35,229 nucleotides of DNA from Reclinomonas americana ATCC 50394 (taxonomy: Eukaryota): NCBI GenBank assembly GCA_048213135.1, contig PS015053.1, forward strand, positions 100,526 through 135,754, written 5' to 3'. A model generated the notes under the pieces. That model searched no databases. It was not told the DNA's origin and saw nothing but the letters and a program-made list of their open reading frames with translations. Of this stretch, positions 2,316 to 35,002 are shown one piece after another (the first letter of the stretch is position 1; each line of letters begins with the position of its first letter). Both the position numbers and the translations under genes were made by a program.

Positions 2316-5300
2316 CTACGGCGATAATGGCGATGGCGACGGCGATGCCGCAGTACGCGGAGACACCATAAACTGCGACGGTGGCTGGCTGCTCAACGTG
2401 GATGGAGCGCGCCCTCGTCGTTGATGTTTCGAGCTGTCGATCTCCCGGCAGTATGCCTCCAGGCCGAGTTGAGCGCACCGCTCGCGAACTGCGCGTCAGG
2501 GGAGGGATAGGTGAGAAGGAGAGGGGACAGCGGAGCGACAAAGTAAGTATGCTGACCTGGTTGAGCATCAAAGTACACGCTGGTGCGCAGCACCGACTCG
2601 AAGACCTCAATCAGCTGCTTCTCGACGGCCAGCGGGAATACTGCGTATGCGCGGAAATATGAGAGGTAGATGAGAAGTGGCGGGAAGTGATCGAGGGCGG
2701 GAAAGGGAAGAAAGTGACGCTCACTCTAATACACACACGCATATACTCAGAAAAAAGAGAGAGGTGGACAGCAAGGTACGAGTTGATATGATAGCGAAAT
2801 CGAATGAGGAAGAACGTCTTTCCCTTCTCCTCCTCCTCTGCATTTTTTCGTTGCAGAGAAAGCGCACAAGAGATGAAGTGGAACAAAGGATCTCACTCTC
2901 GAACTCAATCACGCTCACCGTCTCTTTTTCCACCCTTCGCTTCCTCAAGCACTCGCTCACTGACTGACTGACTCACCCTCTTCTCACTCTCCTCAATCTA
3001 AATCGTACCCCATTCCACCTGCTTCCTCAAGCACTCAAGTACTCTCTCACTTCCTCACTCACTCTCCCTTCAATTCTCTGGCGCACACATTCCATCGTTC
3101 CCTCCACTTTCATGTCTCACCACCACTGGACTCGCTGACTCCTCCACCCTCCACTTTTCAACCTCCACTCTCAGCACACACAAACTCACTGCACCACCTT
3201 CCTTNNNNNNNNNNNNNNNNNNNNNNNNNNNNNNNNNNNNNNNNNNNNNNNNNNNNNNNNNNNNNNNNNNNNNNNNNNNNNNNNNNNNNNNNNNNNNNNN
3301 NNNNNNNNNNNNNNNNNNNNNNNNNNNNNNNNNNNNNNNNNNNNNNNNNNNNNNNNNNNNNNNNNNNNNNNNNNNNNNNNNNNNNNNNNNNNNNNNNNNN
3401 NNNNNNNNNNNNNNNNNNNNNNNNNNNNNNNNNNNNNNNNNNNNNNNNNNNNNNNNNNNNNNNNNNNNNNNNNNNNNNNNNNAGACGAGAGACGCGAGAG
3501 AGAGAGAGAGAGAGATGAAACACTCACGGAGAGAAGAGAGGAGAGCTATCCAGTGTATTCCATGGGTGTATAAACTGTGTGAGTTGTGTACTTTCATGCA
3601 CATGATCACGACGAGTAATCGAACCTGACACCTGCAATCGTTTTGGCCGACACACACACACACACTCTCTCTCTCACACACACACACACACACTCACTAC
3701 TCCACATTCCTCACTCGCCCTCACACTCACACACACATCTTTGGCTCGCGTCTAACTCTTATCACTCGCACCCACCTTCCTTCACTCACTCACTGCCTAT
3801 CTCAAAACTTTGCTTGCAGCACCCTGCACGGACTAAATTACTTACTAACACACTCAATCTCTAACTCCCTCACTCCCCCTTCACCCCGTTCCCCCTTCCC
3901 CCTCGTCCCCTTTCCCCTTTCCCCTTACGCACATGGCGGCTCCTCCTCCTCCGCCTCAAACGCCGGCGTCGACGGCACCGCCGGCGGCGGCGACGACAAC
4001 GACGACGGACTGTCGGTCACATCCGTAAACCTCGACGACGACGACGACACCCCCTGCTGCTGCGGCGGCGACTCTACGCCCACCGGCGACGGACTCGCCG
4101 TGGACGGCGAGCGGTCGCGCATCGCCGGCGACAGCGACATGGAGGAGGGCGAGGCCGCGCCCATCATCATGTCGCTGAACTGCCGCTGTCGCGCGGTGCG
4201 CCGGTACGCCGGCGCCACCACCTTTTCCAGCAGCCACGCAATGAGATCGGCGTGGTAGCGCGAGGAGCGCTGCGGGTCGGTGCGGGTGACGCGGGCGAGG
4301 AAGAGGAACTTGAGTTCCTCGTCGGGCGCCAGCAGCTCCACCATGTGGTACATGTCGAGGGTGCACTGCGAGAATTCTTGCAGGGCGCGCACTGGATTCA
4401 ACTCCACGAGCTGCAATAGGGGGAAAGCGGAGAAGGGAATGGGTAAGGAATGGGGAAGGGGGAATAGGAGAAGAGGGCGAAGGGTGAAGGGATGAGAGGG
4501 AATAAGAGATGGGAATGGGATGGGCATCAAAAGGGGCAAGACAAGAGAGACAGCGAATTTTCAAATAGTTGAAGAAAGACAGCTTGATACTGAGAGAATG
4601 ATATGGCAAGAGAGCGAGAGAGAGAGAGAGACAGAGACAGAGACACAGAAACGCTCAAATGTAACAGACGAGAGAACACCGCAGATGGGACAAAACGTGT
4701 ATGAGAAACAGAGAGAAAGAGGGAGGGAGAGAGAAGAGGAGACAGACAGAGACAACGAGACAAAGACAGGGACAGAGAGACAGAGAGATACAGAGCGTCA
4801 AAGAGAGAGATACAAAGACAGAGTCAGAGACAAGAGAGATAGATAGAGAGAAAGATAACGTGGCGGAGACAACAGAGACAGAGTCAGAGACAAGAGAGAT
4901 AGATAGAGAGAAAGATAACGTGGCGGAGACAGAAACAGAGACAGAGAGCGAGACAGAGACAACGAAAGTGAGACAGAGAAAAGAGCGTAAGTTACGGAGG
5001 AGAGATACAACGGCGAGCAAGCAAGGATACTCACACAACGTAGAGAGAGAGAGAGTGTGTGTGTGTGTGTGTTGAGCTTTACAAAACAGAGCGAGTGACC
5101 GGAGACAGACACTTGTGCAACACCGCATGCAACAGAAGGAAACGAATGAGGAAAGGACGAAATGAGCACACGGATGGTGCAGCAGACAAGAACAGAGCAC
5201 GCGAGTGCGACTGCAACAGAGTGAGACAAGAGGTAAACGCGCTCTCTCACTCTCTTTCTCTCGCGACGAGAAAGGCGGGTGGGATGTCGCCGAGAAACAC

Positions 5301-23819: not shown

Positions 23820-24415
23820 NNNNNNNNNNNNNNNNNNNNNNNNNNNNNNNNNNNNNNNNNNNNNNNNNNNNNNNNNNNNNNNNNNNNNNNNNNNNNNNNN
23901 NNNNNNNNNNNNNNNNNNNNNNNNNNNNNNNNNNNNNNNNNNNNNNNNNNNNNNNNNNNNNNNNNNNNNNNNNNNNNNNNNNNNNNNNNNNNNNNNNNNN
24001 NNNNNNNNNNNNNNNNNNNNNNNNNNNNNNNNNNNNNNNNNNNNNNNNNNNNNNNNNNNNNNNNNNCCCATTTCCCTCACCATCCACGGCAGACGTTCAC
24101 CCACTCTTCGGCTTCGTGTCGGCCAACAAGCGCGACATTTTGTGGCGCCTGGAGGAGTACTCGCTGCCGGAGGTCGTGGCCGTGCACGCGGTGGAGATTC
24201 TGAATGGCGCGCTCGGCGACGGCGGCCTGCAGGACCGCACCGTGCACGACTCGTTCTTCACGGAAGTAGCGCCGGAGTTTGTGGCCGACTGCCGCGAGCT
24301 GGTGGAGGAGCATGAGCGGGAGCTGGACGAGTGTCAGTATCGGCGTGATGCGGCGATTGCGGGGGTGGATGTCAATGTGCAGGCCGAGATGGAGCAGTTG
24401 GAGAATGATTTCGAG
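18804..24415 (+). CDS. Long Pro/Ser/Ala-rich, probably nuclear, protein with a C-terminal Sds3/BRMS1-like coiled coil; partial at both ends
   Basis: Exons 18804-18942, 20516-21243 (between gaps; contains ARKRRRD, NLS-like), 22511-22618, 22990-23018, 23313-23483 and 24093-24415; the last four join in phase. EVAPEFVADCRELVEEHERELDECQYRRDAAIAGVDVNVQAEMEQLENDFE resembles the Sds3-family pattern PEy..l..Le....rl......r......i......e......fe. Linkage across the gaps is inferred. Confidence 0.5.
19893..20216 (-). other. Coding-like contig fragment on the opposite strand, probably a mis-oriented piece of the surrounding + strand gene
   Basis: The - strand frame reads VLNIPSLATRRRPPRNAAPVDT...AEIRRSARRAAA...QQQKQKEQPSDGDTPEKS, with the same low-complexity style as 20516-21243. 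It is bounded by N gaps on both sides. Confidence 0.55.
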
Positions 24416-24525
24416 GTTGGTGGGGAGAAGGGAGAATGAGGGAGGGTGAGGGGAAAGGGGAGAGGGGAGAGGGGAGAGAGAAGAAGACTGAAAGCTTTTA
24501 CATGGAGGAGTGGAGATGCGAAGGC

Positions 24526-28888: not shown

Positions 28889-31800
28889 ATGTGCGGCGTT
28901 GTGTCGGGAATCCTGGCAAAGTGCGTGTGTGATCTGTGCCGTATGTATTGTCGTCAGATAAAACTTCTCACACTCACGCACACTCTGTGATTTTGTGTGT
29001 GGCTGTGCTTGTGCACTGGCAGTGTCTCGTTTGCTCGAGAAAGAGCATCGGATGCTGCGTGGAATGGCGACATGCATGCACTGTTGGATTTGGTTTGTCA
29101 TCTCCAGTGCGAGTTTATCAAAAGCGGTCGCACCGCTTTTTTCATCGCCGCTGGCAAAGGCGATCTCGATACGTTGACGCGTTTGTGGACGGAGAGCGGT
29201 GTCGGCCCACGACTTGCCATGATTCGCAGCGGCAGCGACTGGACGCCTCTAATGGCGGCTGCCGAGAAAGGGCACCTGCATGTGGTGCAGTGGTTGCTGG
29301 CCGATGAGCAACGATGCCCAGCGGAGATGGTACGCGTGGTCAGCAATCACACATCCGTGGAGCCGCAATCCACCGCGCTGCATTTTGCGGCCGCGCAAGG
29401 CCACGAAGCCATTGTGCGACTGTTGGCTCAGTCTTACCCTGAACTTATTCCGATGGTCAACCATAAGGGCCGGACGGCGGCCCAATGGGCGCGTGAAAAG
29501 GGGAAGCAAGACGTGGCAAACTTGCTTGACTGCGATCTGCCGTCACGGCCATCACGACCGCAACCGCCCGCCACGGAGCCATCACAATCACCGCCACCCG
29601 TGCCTCCATCTCCGCCAGCAAGGTATTGAGGGATCTATTCATATATTGTCAGGCCTGCTGCTTCCCGCTTACTTATCTGTATGATGCCGATGGTTGCCGA
29701 TAGTATTCCGTCAAAGAAGGCGTGGGAGCTGGCGAAGGATGGTGATGTTGAAGCGTTGCGCGCGTTGGTGGCCCGCGACGGTGCGTCCACCCTACTGGAG
29801 GTCGATAACCGTGAGAATCGCTGCTCCACGTTTTTTATTGCCGCTCGGAAAGGCCACCTACCCGTTCTGGAGTATTTGTGGTCTGAAAGCGGTGTTGGAA
29901 CACAACTCGCCAAGATGCTCACCAAAAATGGCTGGTCACCTTTGATGACGGCATGTTTCAACGGACATCTTGCAGTTGTGGAATGGTTGCTGGCTGATGA
30001 GCTTCGATGTTCCCCGGAGACGGCATGCGCAGTGCCAGCTGCAGATGACAACAGTCGTTGGACAGTGCTCCATTATGCCGCCTCCAGAGGCCACAGAGAC
30101 GTTGTTCAACTGCTTGCCAATCGCTTTGCCCAGCTTGTTCCCATGGTCGACGACAGTGGTAGGACAGCCGCTCAAGTTGCGCGTGAACGCAGTCAACCTG
30201 CGGTTGCCGTGTTGCTCGAAGGCCTTGCCACACATCCACCAGCCCTTGGTTTGGATGCGGTGAGGCGCAAGTTTCTTGTCCCATGTCTTTTCTTACGTGA
30301 ATTGTTCAAATTCGCCGTGTGTCAACCGTGCGCAGGCTGTCGATATGGACGATGCGATGGCGAGGCGCCTCGCTGAACGTGATGCGATTGTCGCGCAGCT
30401 TCAGCGCGATTTCGCTGCAGTGCAGCAGGAGCGCGAGCAACAGCTGCATGAGTGGGAGAGGCAGCGATTAGAGCTTGAGGTCGATGTGGTTCAGCTTGAG
30501 CGAGCGAACACTGAGCTTCGACAACAACTCAACGCCCAGCTGTACGAGGTGGACGAACTTGGACAGCGAGCTCAGCAGCAGATTGCAGAACTTCGGCAAT
30601 GTGTCGCAGACGAGCGGCAACGGGTCATTCATCTGCAGCAAGCAGTTGCGGAGAGGACAGTCCAACTGGAGCAATCGATATCAAACGCAGAATTCATCGA
30701 ATGCCAACAAGCTCTGGCACGAGAGCGGCAATACGTGGCTCAACTTGAGCGAGCAATCGCAGATGTGCGGCAACTGAGTGCCGATGAGCAGCAGCGATTC
30801 AACCAACTTCGCCATCTCCACGCGGATGGACAGCGGCAAGCAGTTCAACTGGAGGACAAGCTGGCGCAATACGCAGCCCTGCTGACCAACGCTGAGCGCG
30901 AGAAGGGCGCACTTGCCACTGTACTGACTACAGTGCGCCAGCAGCTGGAAGACGAAAAAGCCGCTAAAGGTTTGTTGCTATTATCATACATGGTTTGTCG
31001 GTCGCTGCTCCACACGCGAATTCCAATTTCTCGCGGTCTCCCTTTCTCTCTCTCTCTCTCTCTCCTCCCCCCCCCCTCTCCGTACGTCGTACGTACGTAC
31101 CGTACCGTACCGTACCGTACCGGTACCGGTACCGTACCGTACCGTACCGGTACCGTACCGTACGTACCGTACNNNNNNNNNNNNNNNNNNNNNNNNNNNN
31201 NNNNNNNNNNNNNNNNNNNNNNNNNNNNNNNNNNNNNNNNNNNNNNNNNNNNNNNNNNNNNNNNNNNNNNNNNNNNNNNNNNNNNNNNNNNNNNNNNNNN
31301 NNNNNNNNNNNNNNNNNNNNNNNNNNNNNNNNNNNNNNNNNNNNNNNNNNNNNNNNNNNNNNNNNNNNNNNNNNNNNNNNNNNNNNNNNNNNNNNNNNNN
31401 NNNNNNNNNNNNNNNNNNNNNNNNNNNNNNNNNNNNNNNNNNNNNNNNNNNNNNNNNNNNNNNNNNNNNNNNNNNNNNNNNNNNNNNNNNNNNNNNNNNN
31501 NNNNNNNNNNNNNNNNNNNNNNNNNNNNNNNNNNNNNNNNNNNNNNNNNNNNNNNNNNNNNNNNNNNNNNNNNNNNNNNNNNNNNNNNNNNNNNNNNNNN
31601 NNNNNNNNNNNNNNNNNNNNNNNNNNNNNNNNNNNNNNNNNNNNNNNNNNNNNNNNNNNNNNNNNNNNNNNNNNNNNNNNNNNNNNNNNNNNNNNNNNNN
31701 NNNNNNNNNNNNNNNNNNNNNNNNNNNNNNNNNNNNNNNNNNNNNNNNNNNNNNNNNNNNNNNNNNNNNNNNNNNNNNNNNNNNNNNNNNNNNNNNNNNN

Positions 31801-34800
31801 NNNNNNNNNNNNNNNNNNNNNNNNNNNNNNNNNNNNNNNNNNNNNNNNNNNNNNNNNNNNNNNNNNNNNNNNNNNNNNNNNNNNNNNNNNNNNNNNNNNN
31901 NNNNNNNNNNNNNNNNNNNNNNNNNNNNNNNNNNNNNNNNNNNNNNNNNNNNNGGTTTTGGTTCCGGTTCGGTCGTCGTCCTCCACCACGACGTACTACT
32001 ACTTCTCGCGTCTCTCTCTCTCTCTCTCTCTCTCTCCTCCCCTCCCCCCCCCCCCCCCCCTCCCCTCCTCTCTCTCTTCTTGTTCCCTAATCTCTGTCGA
32101 CATATGTCTCATTTCAAAAAACTGCACTCCAGATGATGCTATTGCTGCGTGTGCCCGACTCTCGCGGCAGCTTGCAGTCGCCAGTTGCGAGTCCACTAGA
32201 ACCAGTTGTCAACGGCACTCTGCTTTCGCATGCCTTGCAGCCGCCCAGCGCGCCTCCGACACGCTCACAGCCGATCAGGATCATGAGCTGCCATCCAGTA
32301 GCACCAAGGCCGACCATCTGCAACAAGAATTGGCTGACGACGAGCGTGCTACTGATCTCGCTGCGAAGCTTCGAGCGCAGCTTTCCGTTGCTGTGATGGA
32401 ATGCGACAAGTTGCGACACCGACTCTCCGAGATGGAGTGCCATCTGCGTGGTCTATTCCGCAAGGATTTTCTAAGGTATTCATCAAGCAAAGTCTATGTT
32501 CAATTCTAGTGTTTGTATTTCTTACTCTCGCCGGACTCACAGCGATCGGCGTCGAATTTGGTTGCTTAGCGAAGTCGTACACGAAATCATTCCCCGCGCA
32601 CTAGGCGCCCTCTTGCGACAACTCGTCGCTGAGTTCTTCCCTGGAGAATTCGACATAGAGCAACTCTGCCTTCCCTCTCCACCACAGAGGTACCGAAATA
32701 TTGACTGATTGCCTGCACGTACTGTGTTTACTGTACTCAGCCTGTCTCGCAGATATTGTAGGATGACTCTTGACAAGCGCGGCAATATTCGGATGCGTTC
32801 GGTCGAGCTTTTCCCTTCCAACTACGACGCGATTCGCAAGTTCAAGCAAACTGATAAGACAGCAGACATGGACGTGACTCTTGTGAGCACTCTGCTGTTG
32901 TACATCACCTTTGTGCCTGTCGCCGCGTGTCGTGAGGACGACTTGCTGGAGACTGCCGTCCGTCTTGATCTCGCCACCAGCGAGGATCGGCTGGCTGTGC
33001 CGCTGCTCGCCGACGTCTCCAAGGTATGCTTTCCCCCTACATTGACACCCGTTACTTGAGGTTGCCTAGTTGTTGTCGTCGTATCACAGTTCTCACTTCA
33101 AGGGCTTTGCAGATACAAGCCGTGAAACATTTGCGCGATGTGCGCCATCGCCTGTCCCACTTGGCCCGTGTTTCCTCCCTCGATGATCTGGAGTATTTGA
33201 ACGTCATGCGCCTGGTCCGCGACTCGCTGGATATGCTGTTCCCCAGCGGCCATGGCAGTATTCGTCGGTTGTTCGAAGCATATGACAGTTGCGCACACGT
33301 ATTTCCTGCTCAATTCTTGGGGATACTGCCTTATTTGTCGACGCAGTTGTCAGCAGCATTGATGTGACGGCTGAGATGCTAAAGGCAAAAGCCGAGAGAT
33401 TCGAAATTCATGCGCCTGTTGTGCGTTTTTCTGACCTGGTGGTTTCAAAACAGCTTGCCGTCGGTGAGTTCTTTTTTTCGCACAAATGTCGGGTGTCTTG
33501 TGGTGTGTGCGTCGAGCAGTTGCTGAAAGCAACTGTACAGTTGTCTTCCGCGCCACTCTCAATCTTGGCGGTGTGTCGCGGGTCGTCGCATACAAACGAT
33601 ACATGGTCCGATCTCCGAAACCAGAAGAGGTTCTCCGAACGCAACTAGTGTGTGACAACGAACGCTCGCTACTGGTGCAACTCGAGTTGCGTGCTCCCCC
33701 GTCTGTATGTGCGGCTTATCTGCCACTCATGCATGTTCATGCACACAGTCACACACACATTGTGAAACTTCTAGCTGTGTGCAACGATGATCCAAGTGGT
33801 CTGGGCCTGGTTCTTGAATACGTGGGTCAGGAAGGTGAAGAAGGGCATGCCGAGACGTTGCACGACCTGGTGAAGGACGACCGCGTTGCAACTGAACATC
33901 TGCTCGGTCTTCTCGAACACGTGGCAACAGCGGTGGTGTACACGCATTCACGGCGAGTTATTCATCGCGATCTCAAACCAGAAAGTTGCGTGGCATGCGT
34001 GCTCTGTTGGTGAATACGTGATACAATGGAGATCTAGATTGAGAAGGGGCACGGTGAAGAGTTAATGGTCACGAATTCGAAAGATTATACACCGTCGTCG
34101 AAACTCATGCTGTTCATGTGTATGTCATCGTTGGTGTTTCCAGACGTTTTGATCAGCGATGACCGACTCACTGCAAAACTGTGCGACTTCGGGGAGGCTA
34201 GAAATCATGGCACTCTCGGCAAGATGCAGTCGAACCTCGGAACACCTGCATATGCTGCACCCGAACTCATTCTGGGCCAAGAGGTGTGTGTGCGCGCACG
34301 CGCCGCAGCGTCGTTGACTGACTGTGTCGGTTGAACGGGTTTCCTCATGCTCTCACTGCCACTCGCAGTACGACGAACGTGCTGATGTTTATGGACTCGG
34401 CTCCCTGCTCTGGTTCATCGCCACTCGCCGCGAACCGTTCTCAGGAGTCGCACTGTTGGACATAAAGGAGAAGATTAGAGACAAAGTTCCGCCGGGCAAT
34501 CTGGACGACGCCGCCGTGCGGGCAGCCGTTCCTGAAGACATTCGCAATCTGATTCGACAGTGCTGGGTTGCGTGTGGTAGAAACGGAGGAAAGACACGGA
34601 GGAAATGAGGTATGCTCATCATGTGATGTATCGATGCAGAGGCCTCAAGCGACGCGAGTATCAGCATCGTACGTTCTCAACGAATTGAGGCGATTGGCGA
34701 CAGTGGCGGCACCTCCAGCCGCAGTTGCTGTTGGGGCGCCTGCTGTTGGCGCAGTCAATGCGATAGGTGCGGAAGGATCAGTTGTTATCGTTGAGCCGCA

Positions 34801-34942
34801 AGCGGATCCGGATGCAGAAGGTGCTGTGAATATTCATGCAATGGTAGCGGAAGTGGCACCAAATGCGGTGCTAGTGGCGCCGGCACTCGCTGTAGCAGAC
34901 GAACTGCCGGCGGTGATGCCGGTGATGAATCGATACGAGTAG
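28889..34942 (+). CDS. Multidomain protein: ~10 ankyrin repeats, long coiled coil, DZIP3/hRUL138-type HEPN domain, TKL-like protein kinase, Ala/Val-rich tail
   Basis: Phase-consistent exons: 28889-28920 (start uncertain), 29023-29622, 29704-30259, 30336-30969, 32133-32475, 32543-32689, 32753-33023, 33113-33287, 33347-33463, 33520-33685, 33749-33984, 34144-34283, 34369-34566, 34640-34942 (TAG). ANK motifs: WTPLMAAAEKGHLHVVQWLL and STALHFAAAQGHEAIVRLL. Kinase motifs: VAYK, alphaC Glu (CDNE), HRDLKPEN, CDFG, GTPAYAAPE, DVYGLG. Confidence 0.85.
32543..33287 (+). other. Putative HEPN RNase domain (DZIP3-like), spanning three exons
   Basis: First helix RIWLLSEVVHEIIPRALGALLRQLV. ADMDVTLVSTLLLY matches the family motif fDiTLl..Ll. 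AVKHLRDVRHRLSH contains R-H-x3-H at 33143-33160, followed by SSLDDLEYLNVMRLVRDSLDML (family pattern ..l....f...w..i...l..L). Confidence 0.68.
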
Positions 34943-34996: not shown

Positions 34997-35002
34997 AATA
35001 AA
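34997..35002 (+). promoter_or_regulatory. AATAAA polyadenylation signal candidate for the ANK-HEPN-kinase gene
   Basis: AATAAA 55 nt after the stop codon, in a T-rich context and followed by TTTGTTTG. Confidence 0.5.

Follow-up and report, generated by a model that had tools for sequence, protein, structure and literature searches.

Does a gene of the protist Reclinomonas americana couple ankyrin repeats and a protein kinase to an RNase of the HEPN class, in an arrangement different from those of RNase L and Ire1? The question is raised by a gene at positions 28889-34942 of a 35,229-nucleotide stretch of R. americana ATCC 50394 DNA (GenBank assembly GCA_048213135.1, contig PS015053.1, positions 100,526 to 135,754 of the forward strand). 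We refer to the whole of this stretch as the window and use its numbering throughout; all features of the gene lie on the plus strand. The parts of the encoded protein come in the order ankyrin repeats (ANK), coiled coil, HEPN-like domain and kinase, and the ankyrin, coiled-coil and kinase parts are solid. A first-pass annotation made from the DNA letters had proposed these three parts in this order, and Pfam profiles and residue composition support it. The best explanation of the locus, to which we give a probability of about 0.4, is a single gene that encodes a divergent HEPN domain with an intact R-H-x3-H motif and a Ser/Thr kinase with a TKL-like C-lobe, and whose product would work in the manner of RNase L and Ire1.

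The gene model

Enumeration of GT and AG sites around the open frames gave 14 exons with GT-AG introns that join in phase into an open reading frame of 1305 codons, running from an ATG at 28889 to a TAG stop at 34942 with no internal stop. This independently derived chain bears out the 14 in-phase exons of the first-pass annotation, and its boundaries agree with the introns (29622-29704 and 30969-32133) and the peptide (32543-33287) that had been singled out there. The first solution had 13 exons, the 14th arising from an in-phase intron of 63 nucleotides (nt) at 33686-33748. We accepted the 14-exon model because removal of this intron deletes an odd 21-residue insert between kinase alphaC and beta4, which restores a normal stretch, and because its donor, gttgcg, is of the type used by three other introns of the same gene. 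An intron at 33705-33748, of the sort the earlier reading would have placed here, was rejected as it is 44 nt long and out of phase. The model frame was preferred in every exon by a codon-usage log-odds score, although exon 5 alone was held out of training and the score is thus circular for all other exons. Intron length is 56-159 nt in 12 of the 13 introns, the exception being intron 4 with 1163 nt, and all 13 acceptors end in cag. The unusual donor GTTGCG occurs in four of the 13 introns (33288, 33686, 33985 and 34567). Together with the uniform CAG acceptors, such donors may be useful for modelling genes in this genome.

Putative intron 4 (30970-32132) contains an assembly gap, 781 N at 31173-31953, which was absent from the first-pass annotation and weakens the one-gene claim more than anything else. 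An array of 17 copies of the pentanucleotide CGTAC (31088-31172) abuts the gap on its left, and a (TC)13 tract with a long C-rich run (32011-32036) lies on its right side. These flanking repeats probably caused the gap, and exons could be hidden inside it. Both flanks are non-coding in all three frames by the codon-usage score. Exon 5 (32133-32475), which follows, encodes a linker and a second short coiled-coil-like stretch, and its first 88 codons include no start codon. Its 32133-32396 portion scored +24.0 bits in the model frame versus -9.6 and -32.9 bits in the others, and an alternative frame that begins ATG-ATG at 32133 was rejected on its score of -9.6 bits.

Ankyrin modules and coiled coil

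Exon 2 (29023-29622) encodes a first ankyrin module (Pfam Ank_2, E 3.1e-20; Ank, 2.5e-16) and exon 3 (29704-30259) a second (Ank_2, E 3.4e-22), with a Pro-rich linker seen in the sequence at the end of exon 2 (29540-29620) lying between them. The two modules are 44% identical over 174 columns, which argues that they arose by tandem duplication. Each holds about five repeats, caps included, by a count made by eye, and the earlier figure of roughly ten ANK repeats is therefore fair. A search with exon 3 returned 36 generic ANK proteins at no more than 42% identity (29-36% for those ranked at the top); as there was no self match, the proteome of this organism is absent from the collection searched. 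Two of these matches carry a kinase (P0011 and P0026), which in both lies N-terminal to the ANK repeats, and they were set aside as unrelated architectures.

Exon 4 (30336-30969) encodes a coiled-coil-like region at residues 397-608, recognized by composition and a heptad-like pattern. It is made up of 17% Q, 15% A, 12% L, 12% E and 11% R with only 1.4% P plus G, and a crude home-made heptad score ran from 0.40 to 0.69 across it, all of which bears out the heptad-rich Q/E/L/R coiled coil described before. The Pfam family CALCOCO1 matched this exon at 4.8e-5, under the family cutoff. A homodimer prediction for the coiled coil of exon 4 (score 0.08, mark 0.32) is evidence neither way.

The kinase domain

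The kinase core, with its TKL-like C-lobe, is encoded by exons 11-13 (33749-33984, 34144-34283 and 34369-34566; 33749-34566 overall). Pkinase (PF00069), which has a gathering cutoff of 31.7, matched exon 11 with E 3.6e-10 and 40.1 bits (profile positions 57-127), exon 12 with E 8.4e-8 and 32.4 bits (129-171) and exon 13 with E 0.0073 (174-244). HRDLKPEN, DFG and APE are intact in the spliced product. In the gene model a helical linker that matches no family (exon 9, 33347-33463) leads into kinase subdomain I, and exon 10 (33520-33685) provides the beta1-alphaC region, where the Lys of VAYK and the Glu of NERSLL were assigned by eye. An alternative acceptor at 33541 would remove the Gly-loop strand of the kinase entirely. 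Searches of the PDB gave CAMK/CMGC-like matches (CDK6, AMPK, Aurora, SnRK2, MARK) for the unspliced exon 10-11 stretch and for exon 12, and for exon 13, the C-lobe, TKL kinases were best: MLKL with E 9.2e-4, then TAK1, ZAK and RIPK1.

The middle helical domain

The reading turns on the domain encoded by exons 6-8 (32543-32689, 32753-33023 and 33113-33287; 32543-33287 overall, about residues 722-920). Introns of 63 and 89 nt split the domain, and profile, sequence and fold searches were therefore made exon by exon. The spliced translation contains both segments on which the first-pass annotation had based its HEPN assignment, MDVTLVSTLL (residues 810-819, 32868-32897) and RHRLSH (residues 872-877, 33143-33160). 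The latter is the candidate HEPN Rx4H catalytic motif and the sole strict R[NDH]x3H in the whole protein. HEPN domains form a four-helix up-down bundle, often with an insertion between helices 2 and 3. According to the motif description of Anantharaman 2013 (PMC3710099), they bear Rx4-6H at the C-terminus of a helix that precedes a loop, with 'mostly N, D or H' directly following R. RHRLSH has this form, with His as the polar residue. AlphaFold2 (AF2) predicted three helices for exon 8 alone, a fragment of 58 residues, at a predicted local distance difference test score (pLDDT) of 83.1. In this model a helix at residues 2-19 is followed by a loop at 20-24 and a second helix at 25-42, and RHRLSH occupies residues 11-16, at the helix C-terminal end, which matches the placement in the passage cited.

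An Atlas language-model search with exon 8 pointed in the same direction. The nearest named clusters were Csm6 HEPN (0.85, 0.84 and 0.84), HEPN_Apea (0.80) and Ymh (0.80), and eight of the ten best family-assigned matches fall in the family or clan of the top one. Upstream of RHRLSH there are two Ex3[KR] candidates, at residues 736 and 837, for the acidic partner that HEPN domains conserve in helix 2, although helix assignment is unreliable here. The domain may also resemble HEPN domains of the DZIP3 type in three short elements: an L-F-P turn, a D-V-T-L...L-L element, and an R-x-x3-H helix followed by an acidic helix that bears aromatic residues. Of these, the D-[IV]-T-L...L-L element is the one that MDVTLVSTLL presumably resembles. 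Given the motif, its position in the fragment model and a language-model neighbourhood below threshold, the HEPN reading is plausible, and we think it rather probable that the middle domain belongs to the HEPN superfamily. The earlier HEPN assignment is neither confirmed nor refuted: the motif is present at a helix end and the Atlas neighbours are HEPN families, but single exons gave neither a profile nor a sequence match to HEPN.

Phmmer searches of the PDB with exons 6, 7 and 9 singly gave nothing relevant, and no related loci were found in metagenome contigs (searched with exon 7) or viral contigs (searched with exon 8). Two further observations concern exon 8. The pentapeptide R-H-R-L-S occurs twice in the gene in different codons, once in exon 5 (about 32410-32424) and once in exon 8 (33143-33157). 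Exon-8 residues 15-41 (33155-33235) align over 27 residues with the FAT domain of PYK2, and the alignment includes a near-identical Y-L-N-V-M-x-L-V-R run.

Weighing the alternatives

A number of results weigh against a single gene for a HEPN RNase joined to a competent kinase. Scanned singly, exons 6, 7, 8 and 9 matched no Pfam family at E<=10, PF18738 included, and PADLOC and NCBIfam gave nothing relevant for the middle-domain exons. Among 1.84 billion representative proteins, phmmer matched exon 7 to only two, both of them spurious matches to bacterial Ig-repeat proteins, and neither exon 7 nor the unspliced stretch of exons 10-11 found a homologue in protein searches. Exon 7 had no usable Atlas match, and its AF2 model (pLDDT 48.7) was unusable. 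Every Atlas score of exon 8 is below 0.9, the lead-only level of that tool, and fold searches of the 58-residue exon-8 model by Foldseek and VIA-align returned generic helical matches that are uninformative. In the part of PMC9646362 that describes the oyster proteins with a DZIP3-type HEPN, 194 of 202 have Rx4-6H, with Asn usually after R, whereas the residue here is His. The kinase has its own defects. Positions of the Gly-rich loop (33463-33554) read A-E-S-N-C-T, with no glycine at all, and the Pkinase hidden Markov model (HMM) gave no match to exon 10 alone at E<=10. Hence, of the kinase motifs listed in the first-pass annotation, HRDLKPEN and DFG are present, and the catalytic Lys and alphaC Glu are assignments by eye only. 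Moreover, the strict motif arises in 6.3% of composition-preserving shuffles of the 219-residue middle domain and in 32% of shuffles of the whole protein, and the sole PDB sequence match of exon 8 is not to a HEPN protein but to helix 1 of the PYK2 (PTK2B) FAT domain (E 0.0038).

These chance rates, that FAT match and the lack of a HEPN profile match in any exon also favour a different view of the same gene, in which the middle domain would be a non-catalytic helical module with a regulatory, adaptor or executioner role, for example an MLKL-like four-helix bundle with brace helices or a FAT-like bundle, and R-H-x3-H would be fortuitous. The protein would then be a Ser/Thr kinase scaffolded by ankyrin repeats and a coiled coil. 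Pairings of ANK repeats with a TKL kinase are common (ILK, TNNI3K, RIPK4), MLKL is the best PDB match of the kinase C-lobe exon, and MLKL has a helical bundle and brace directly N-terminal to its kinase fold. However, the margin of MLKL over the other TKL kinases is only about 3 bits, and unlike MLKL, a pseudokinase, the present protein retains HRD, DFG and APE. The match to FAT is confined to one helix; its first three aligned residues are apparently part of an expression tag, and the sequence beyond it is too short to form a FAT bundle. It is probably a chance helix match. The exon-8 Atlas neighbours are HEPN families, not death-fold, four-helix-bundle or FAT families, and RHRLSH sits exactly where HEPN domains bear their motif. 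A non-catalytic module is the main rival reading, and we hold it to be doubtful.

The remaining points against the HEPN-kinase reading concern the gap. The ankyrin/coiled-coil half and the HEPN-like/kinase half are linked solely across its 781 N, in an intron that is more than seven times longer than any other in the gene (1163 nt versus 56-159 nt in the other 12). An ankyrin/coiled-coil protein could end inside the gap and a separate (coiled-coil)-HEPN-like-kinase protein start there, the match between the phases of the exon 4 donor and the exon 5 acceptor being a coincidence with a chance of one in three. Two genes would be consistent with the microsatellites that border the undetermined sequence, and neither transcript nor homologue evidence ties the halves together. 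Against this, exon 5 begins at a cag acceptor and scores as coding over the 88 codons that precede its first in-frame Met, while the gap flanks score as non-coding, and it must therefore be an internal exon that requires an upstream coding partner. Exon 4 for its part is free of in-frame stops up to the gap and ends at a good donor whose phase matches. A stop, a 3' end, a promoter and a first exon would all have to fit into about 0.8 kb, and coiled-coil-like composition is found on either side of the gap. We judge two genes to be unlikely. A single gene and transcript that spans the gap is, from these features of the sequence, likely but unproven.

A possible mode of action

If the locus is one gene for a HEPN RNase coupled to a kinase, its product would be a cytoplasmic protein of about 1300 residues composed of two ankyrin modules, some 300 residues of coiled coil and linker, a helical domain of about 200 residues and a Ser/Thr kinase. 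Recognition of a partner or ligand would fall to the ankyrin modules, and the coiled coil would keep at least two chains associated. Association of the neighbouring kinase domains, their binding of nucleotide or their trans-phosphorylation may then bring two HEPN domains into a dimer, much as dimerisation of the kinase domains does with the KEN domains of Ire1 and RNase L, and this dimer would cleave RNA without a metal. We infer this sequence of events from Ire1 and RNase L; the order of the domains is the only part of it that is observed. In its fullest form the proposal is that a protist independently placed a DZIP3-like HEPN N-terminal to a competent TKL-like kinase and gated it by ankyrin sensors and a dimerising coiled coil, convergent with RNase L and Ire1 and possibly with an antiviral or cell-death role. 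We put this forward as a tentative idea that is rather less than probable.

Gene ends and surroundings

Exon 1 (28889-28920), an ATG followed by 10 codons, is a tentative start; no other in-phase ATG exon was found ahead of exon 2. As it scores only weakly as coding, the true N-terminus is uncertain, the first Met within exon 2 being an alternative start. At the other end, exon 14 (34640-34942) encodes the end of the kinase and an Ala/Val/Pro-rich tail before the TAG stop. No Pfam family matched this exon, with its 100-residue tail after the kinase, at E<=10. A sequence scan found AATAAA, a possible polyadenylation signal, 55 nt past the stop (34997-35002).

Positions 1-28800 of the window are dominated by microsatellites of the CT/GA/CA type and low-complexity sequence and contain 14 further assembly gaps with N runs of 20-761 nt. 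A few segments outside the gene score as coding with its codon usage (for example 24089-24418 on the plus strand, 43 bits, and 4153-4416 on the minus strand, 26 bits), and none of ten candidate coding segments scanned in the rest of the window had a Pfam family above cutoff. Rfam had no matches in the whole window. Neither a paralogue of the gene nor an OAS/cGAS-like gene was seen within the window.

Comparison with known systems

To our knowledge, the kinase-coupled HEPN RNases known so far, Ire1 and RNase L, all have as their RNase the circularly permuted KEN domain, C-terminal to the kinase. A HEPN other than KEN, upstream of a kinase and combined with ankyrin repeats, would if true show that the logic of a sensor, a kinase-fold dimeriser and a HEPN RNase was assembled more than once. 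DZIP3-type HEPN effectors, whose reported partners are NACHT, Death, CARD, TPR and ankyrin, would likewise be extended to kinase signalling in a unicellular eukaryote. In full-text literature of limited coverage we found no DZIP3-type or other non-KEN HEPN fused to a kinase and ankyrin repeats in a protist, in keeping with the first-pass annotation, which was aware of no description of this architecture. A new domain architecture is plausible, though still unproven; if the reading holds, a kinase-coupled HEPN RNase was assembled independently of the KEN family. If instead HEPN is the wrong reading of the middle domain, the gene is one more lineage-specific ankyrin-repeat kinase.

Like this protein, ankyrin-repeat kinases such as ILK, TNNI3K, RIPK4/ANKK1 and DAPK1 carry ANK repeats and a TKL- or CAMK-like kinase on the same chain, but none of them is known to have a coiled coil and an Rx4H helical domain between the two. 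MLKL, a pseudokinase with a four-helix bundle and brace N-terminal to its kinase fold, resembles the R. americana protein in having a helical domain and linker helices directly before a TKL-like kinase fold. It differs in that the present protein adds ANK repeats and a coiled coil, its helical domain bears Rx4H and has HEPN-like language-model neighbours, and its HRD, DFG and APE are intact, where an MLKL-type pseudokinase has degraded catalytic motifs.

Within the HEPN superfamily, the candidate domain may be closer to the DZIP3/hRUL138 type (PF18738) than to KEN. It shares with the former an Rx4H with a polar residue after R. Table 1 of PMC3710099 lists fusions of the DZIP3-type HEPN that include ankyrin repeats, with expansions in Nematostella, oyster and the unicellular holozoan Capsaspora; in that table kinase fusions are given for the KEN family only and none for the DZIP3 type. 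In the cnidarian and oyster NACHT proteins described in PMC8260672 and PMC9646362, the DZIP3-type HEPN is the N-terminal effector.

The sections of PMC3710099 and PMC10400998 on Ire1 and RNase L describe how dimerisation of the kinase fold aligns two HEPN-class domains. The gene product resembles Ire1 in the coupling of a kinase to a (here candidate) HEPN-class RNase and differs from it in that the candidate RNase precedes the kinase and there is no lumenal domain, transmembrane segment or KEN. RNase L, traced to the stem of jawed vertebrates and set out as ANK, pseudokinase and KEN RNase in the account of its domains in PMC10400998, is matched in the presence of N-terminal ankyrin repeats, a kinase fold and a candidate HEPN-class R...H site in one chain, and the expected logic, RNA cleavage gated by dimerisation, would by analogy be the same. 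KEN (PF06479) was found in none of the gene pieces scanned with Pfam. With no KEN domain C-terminal to its kinase, the protein is not a member of the RNase L or Ire1 family, which bears out the separateness from both that had been claimed for it. Where RNase L has ankyrin repeats followed by a pseudokinase and KEN, the R. americana protein runs from two duplicated ANK modules through a long coiled coil to the HEPN-like domain and ends with a kinase that keeps HRD, DFG and APE.

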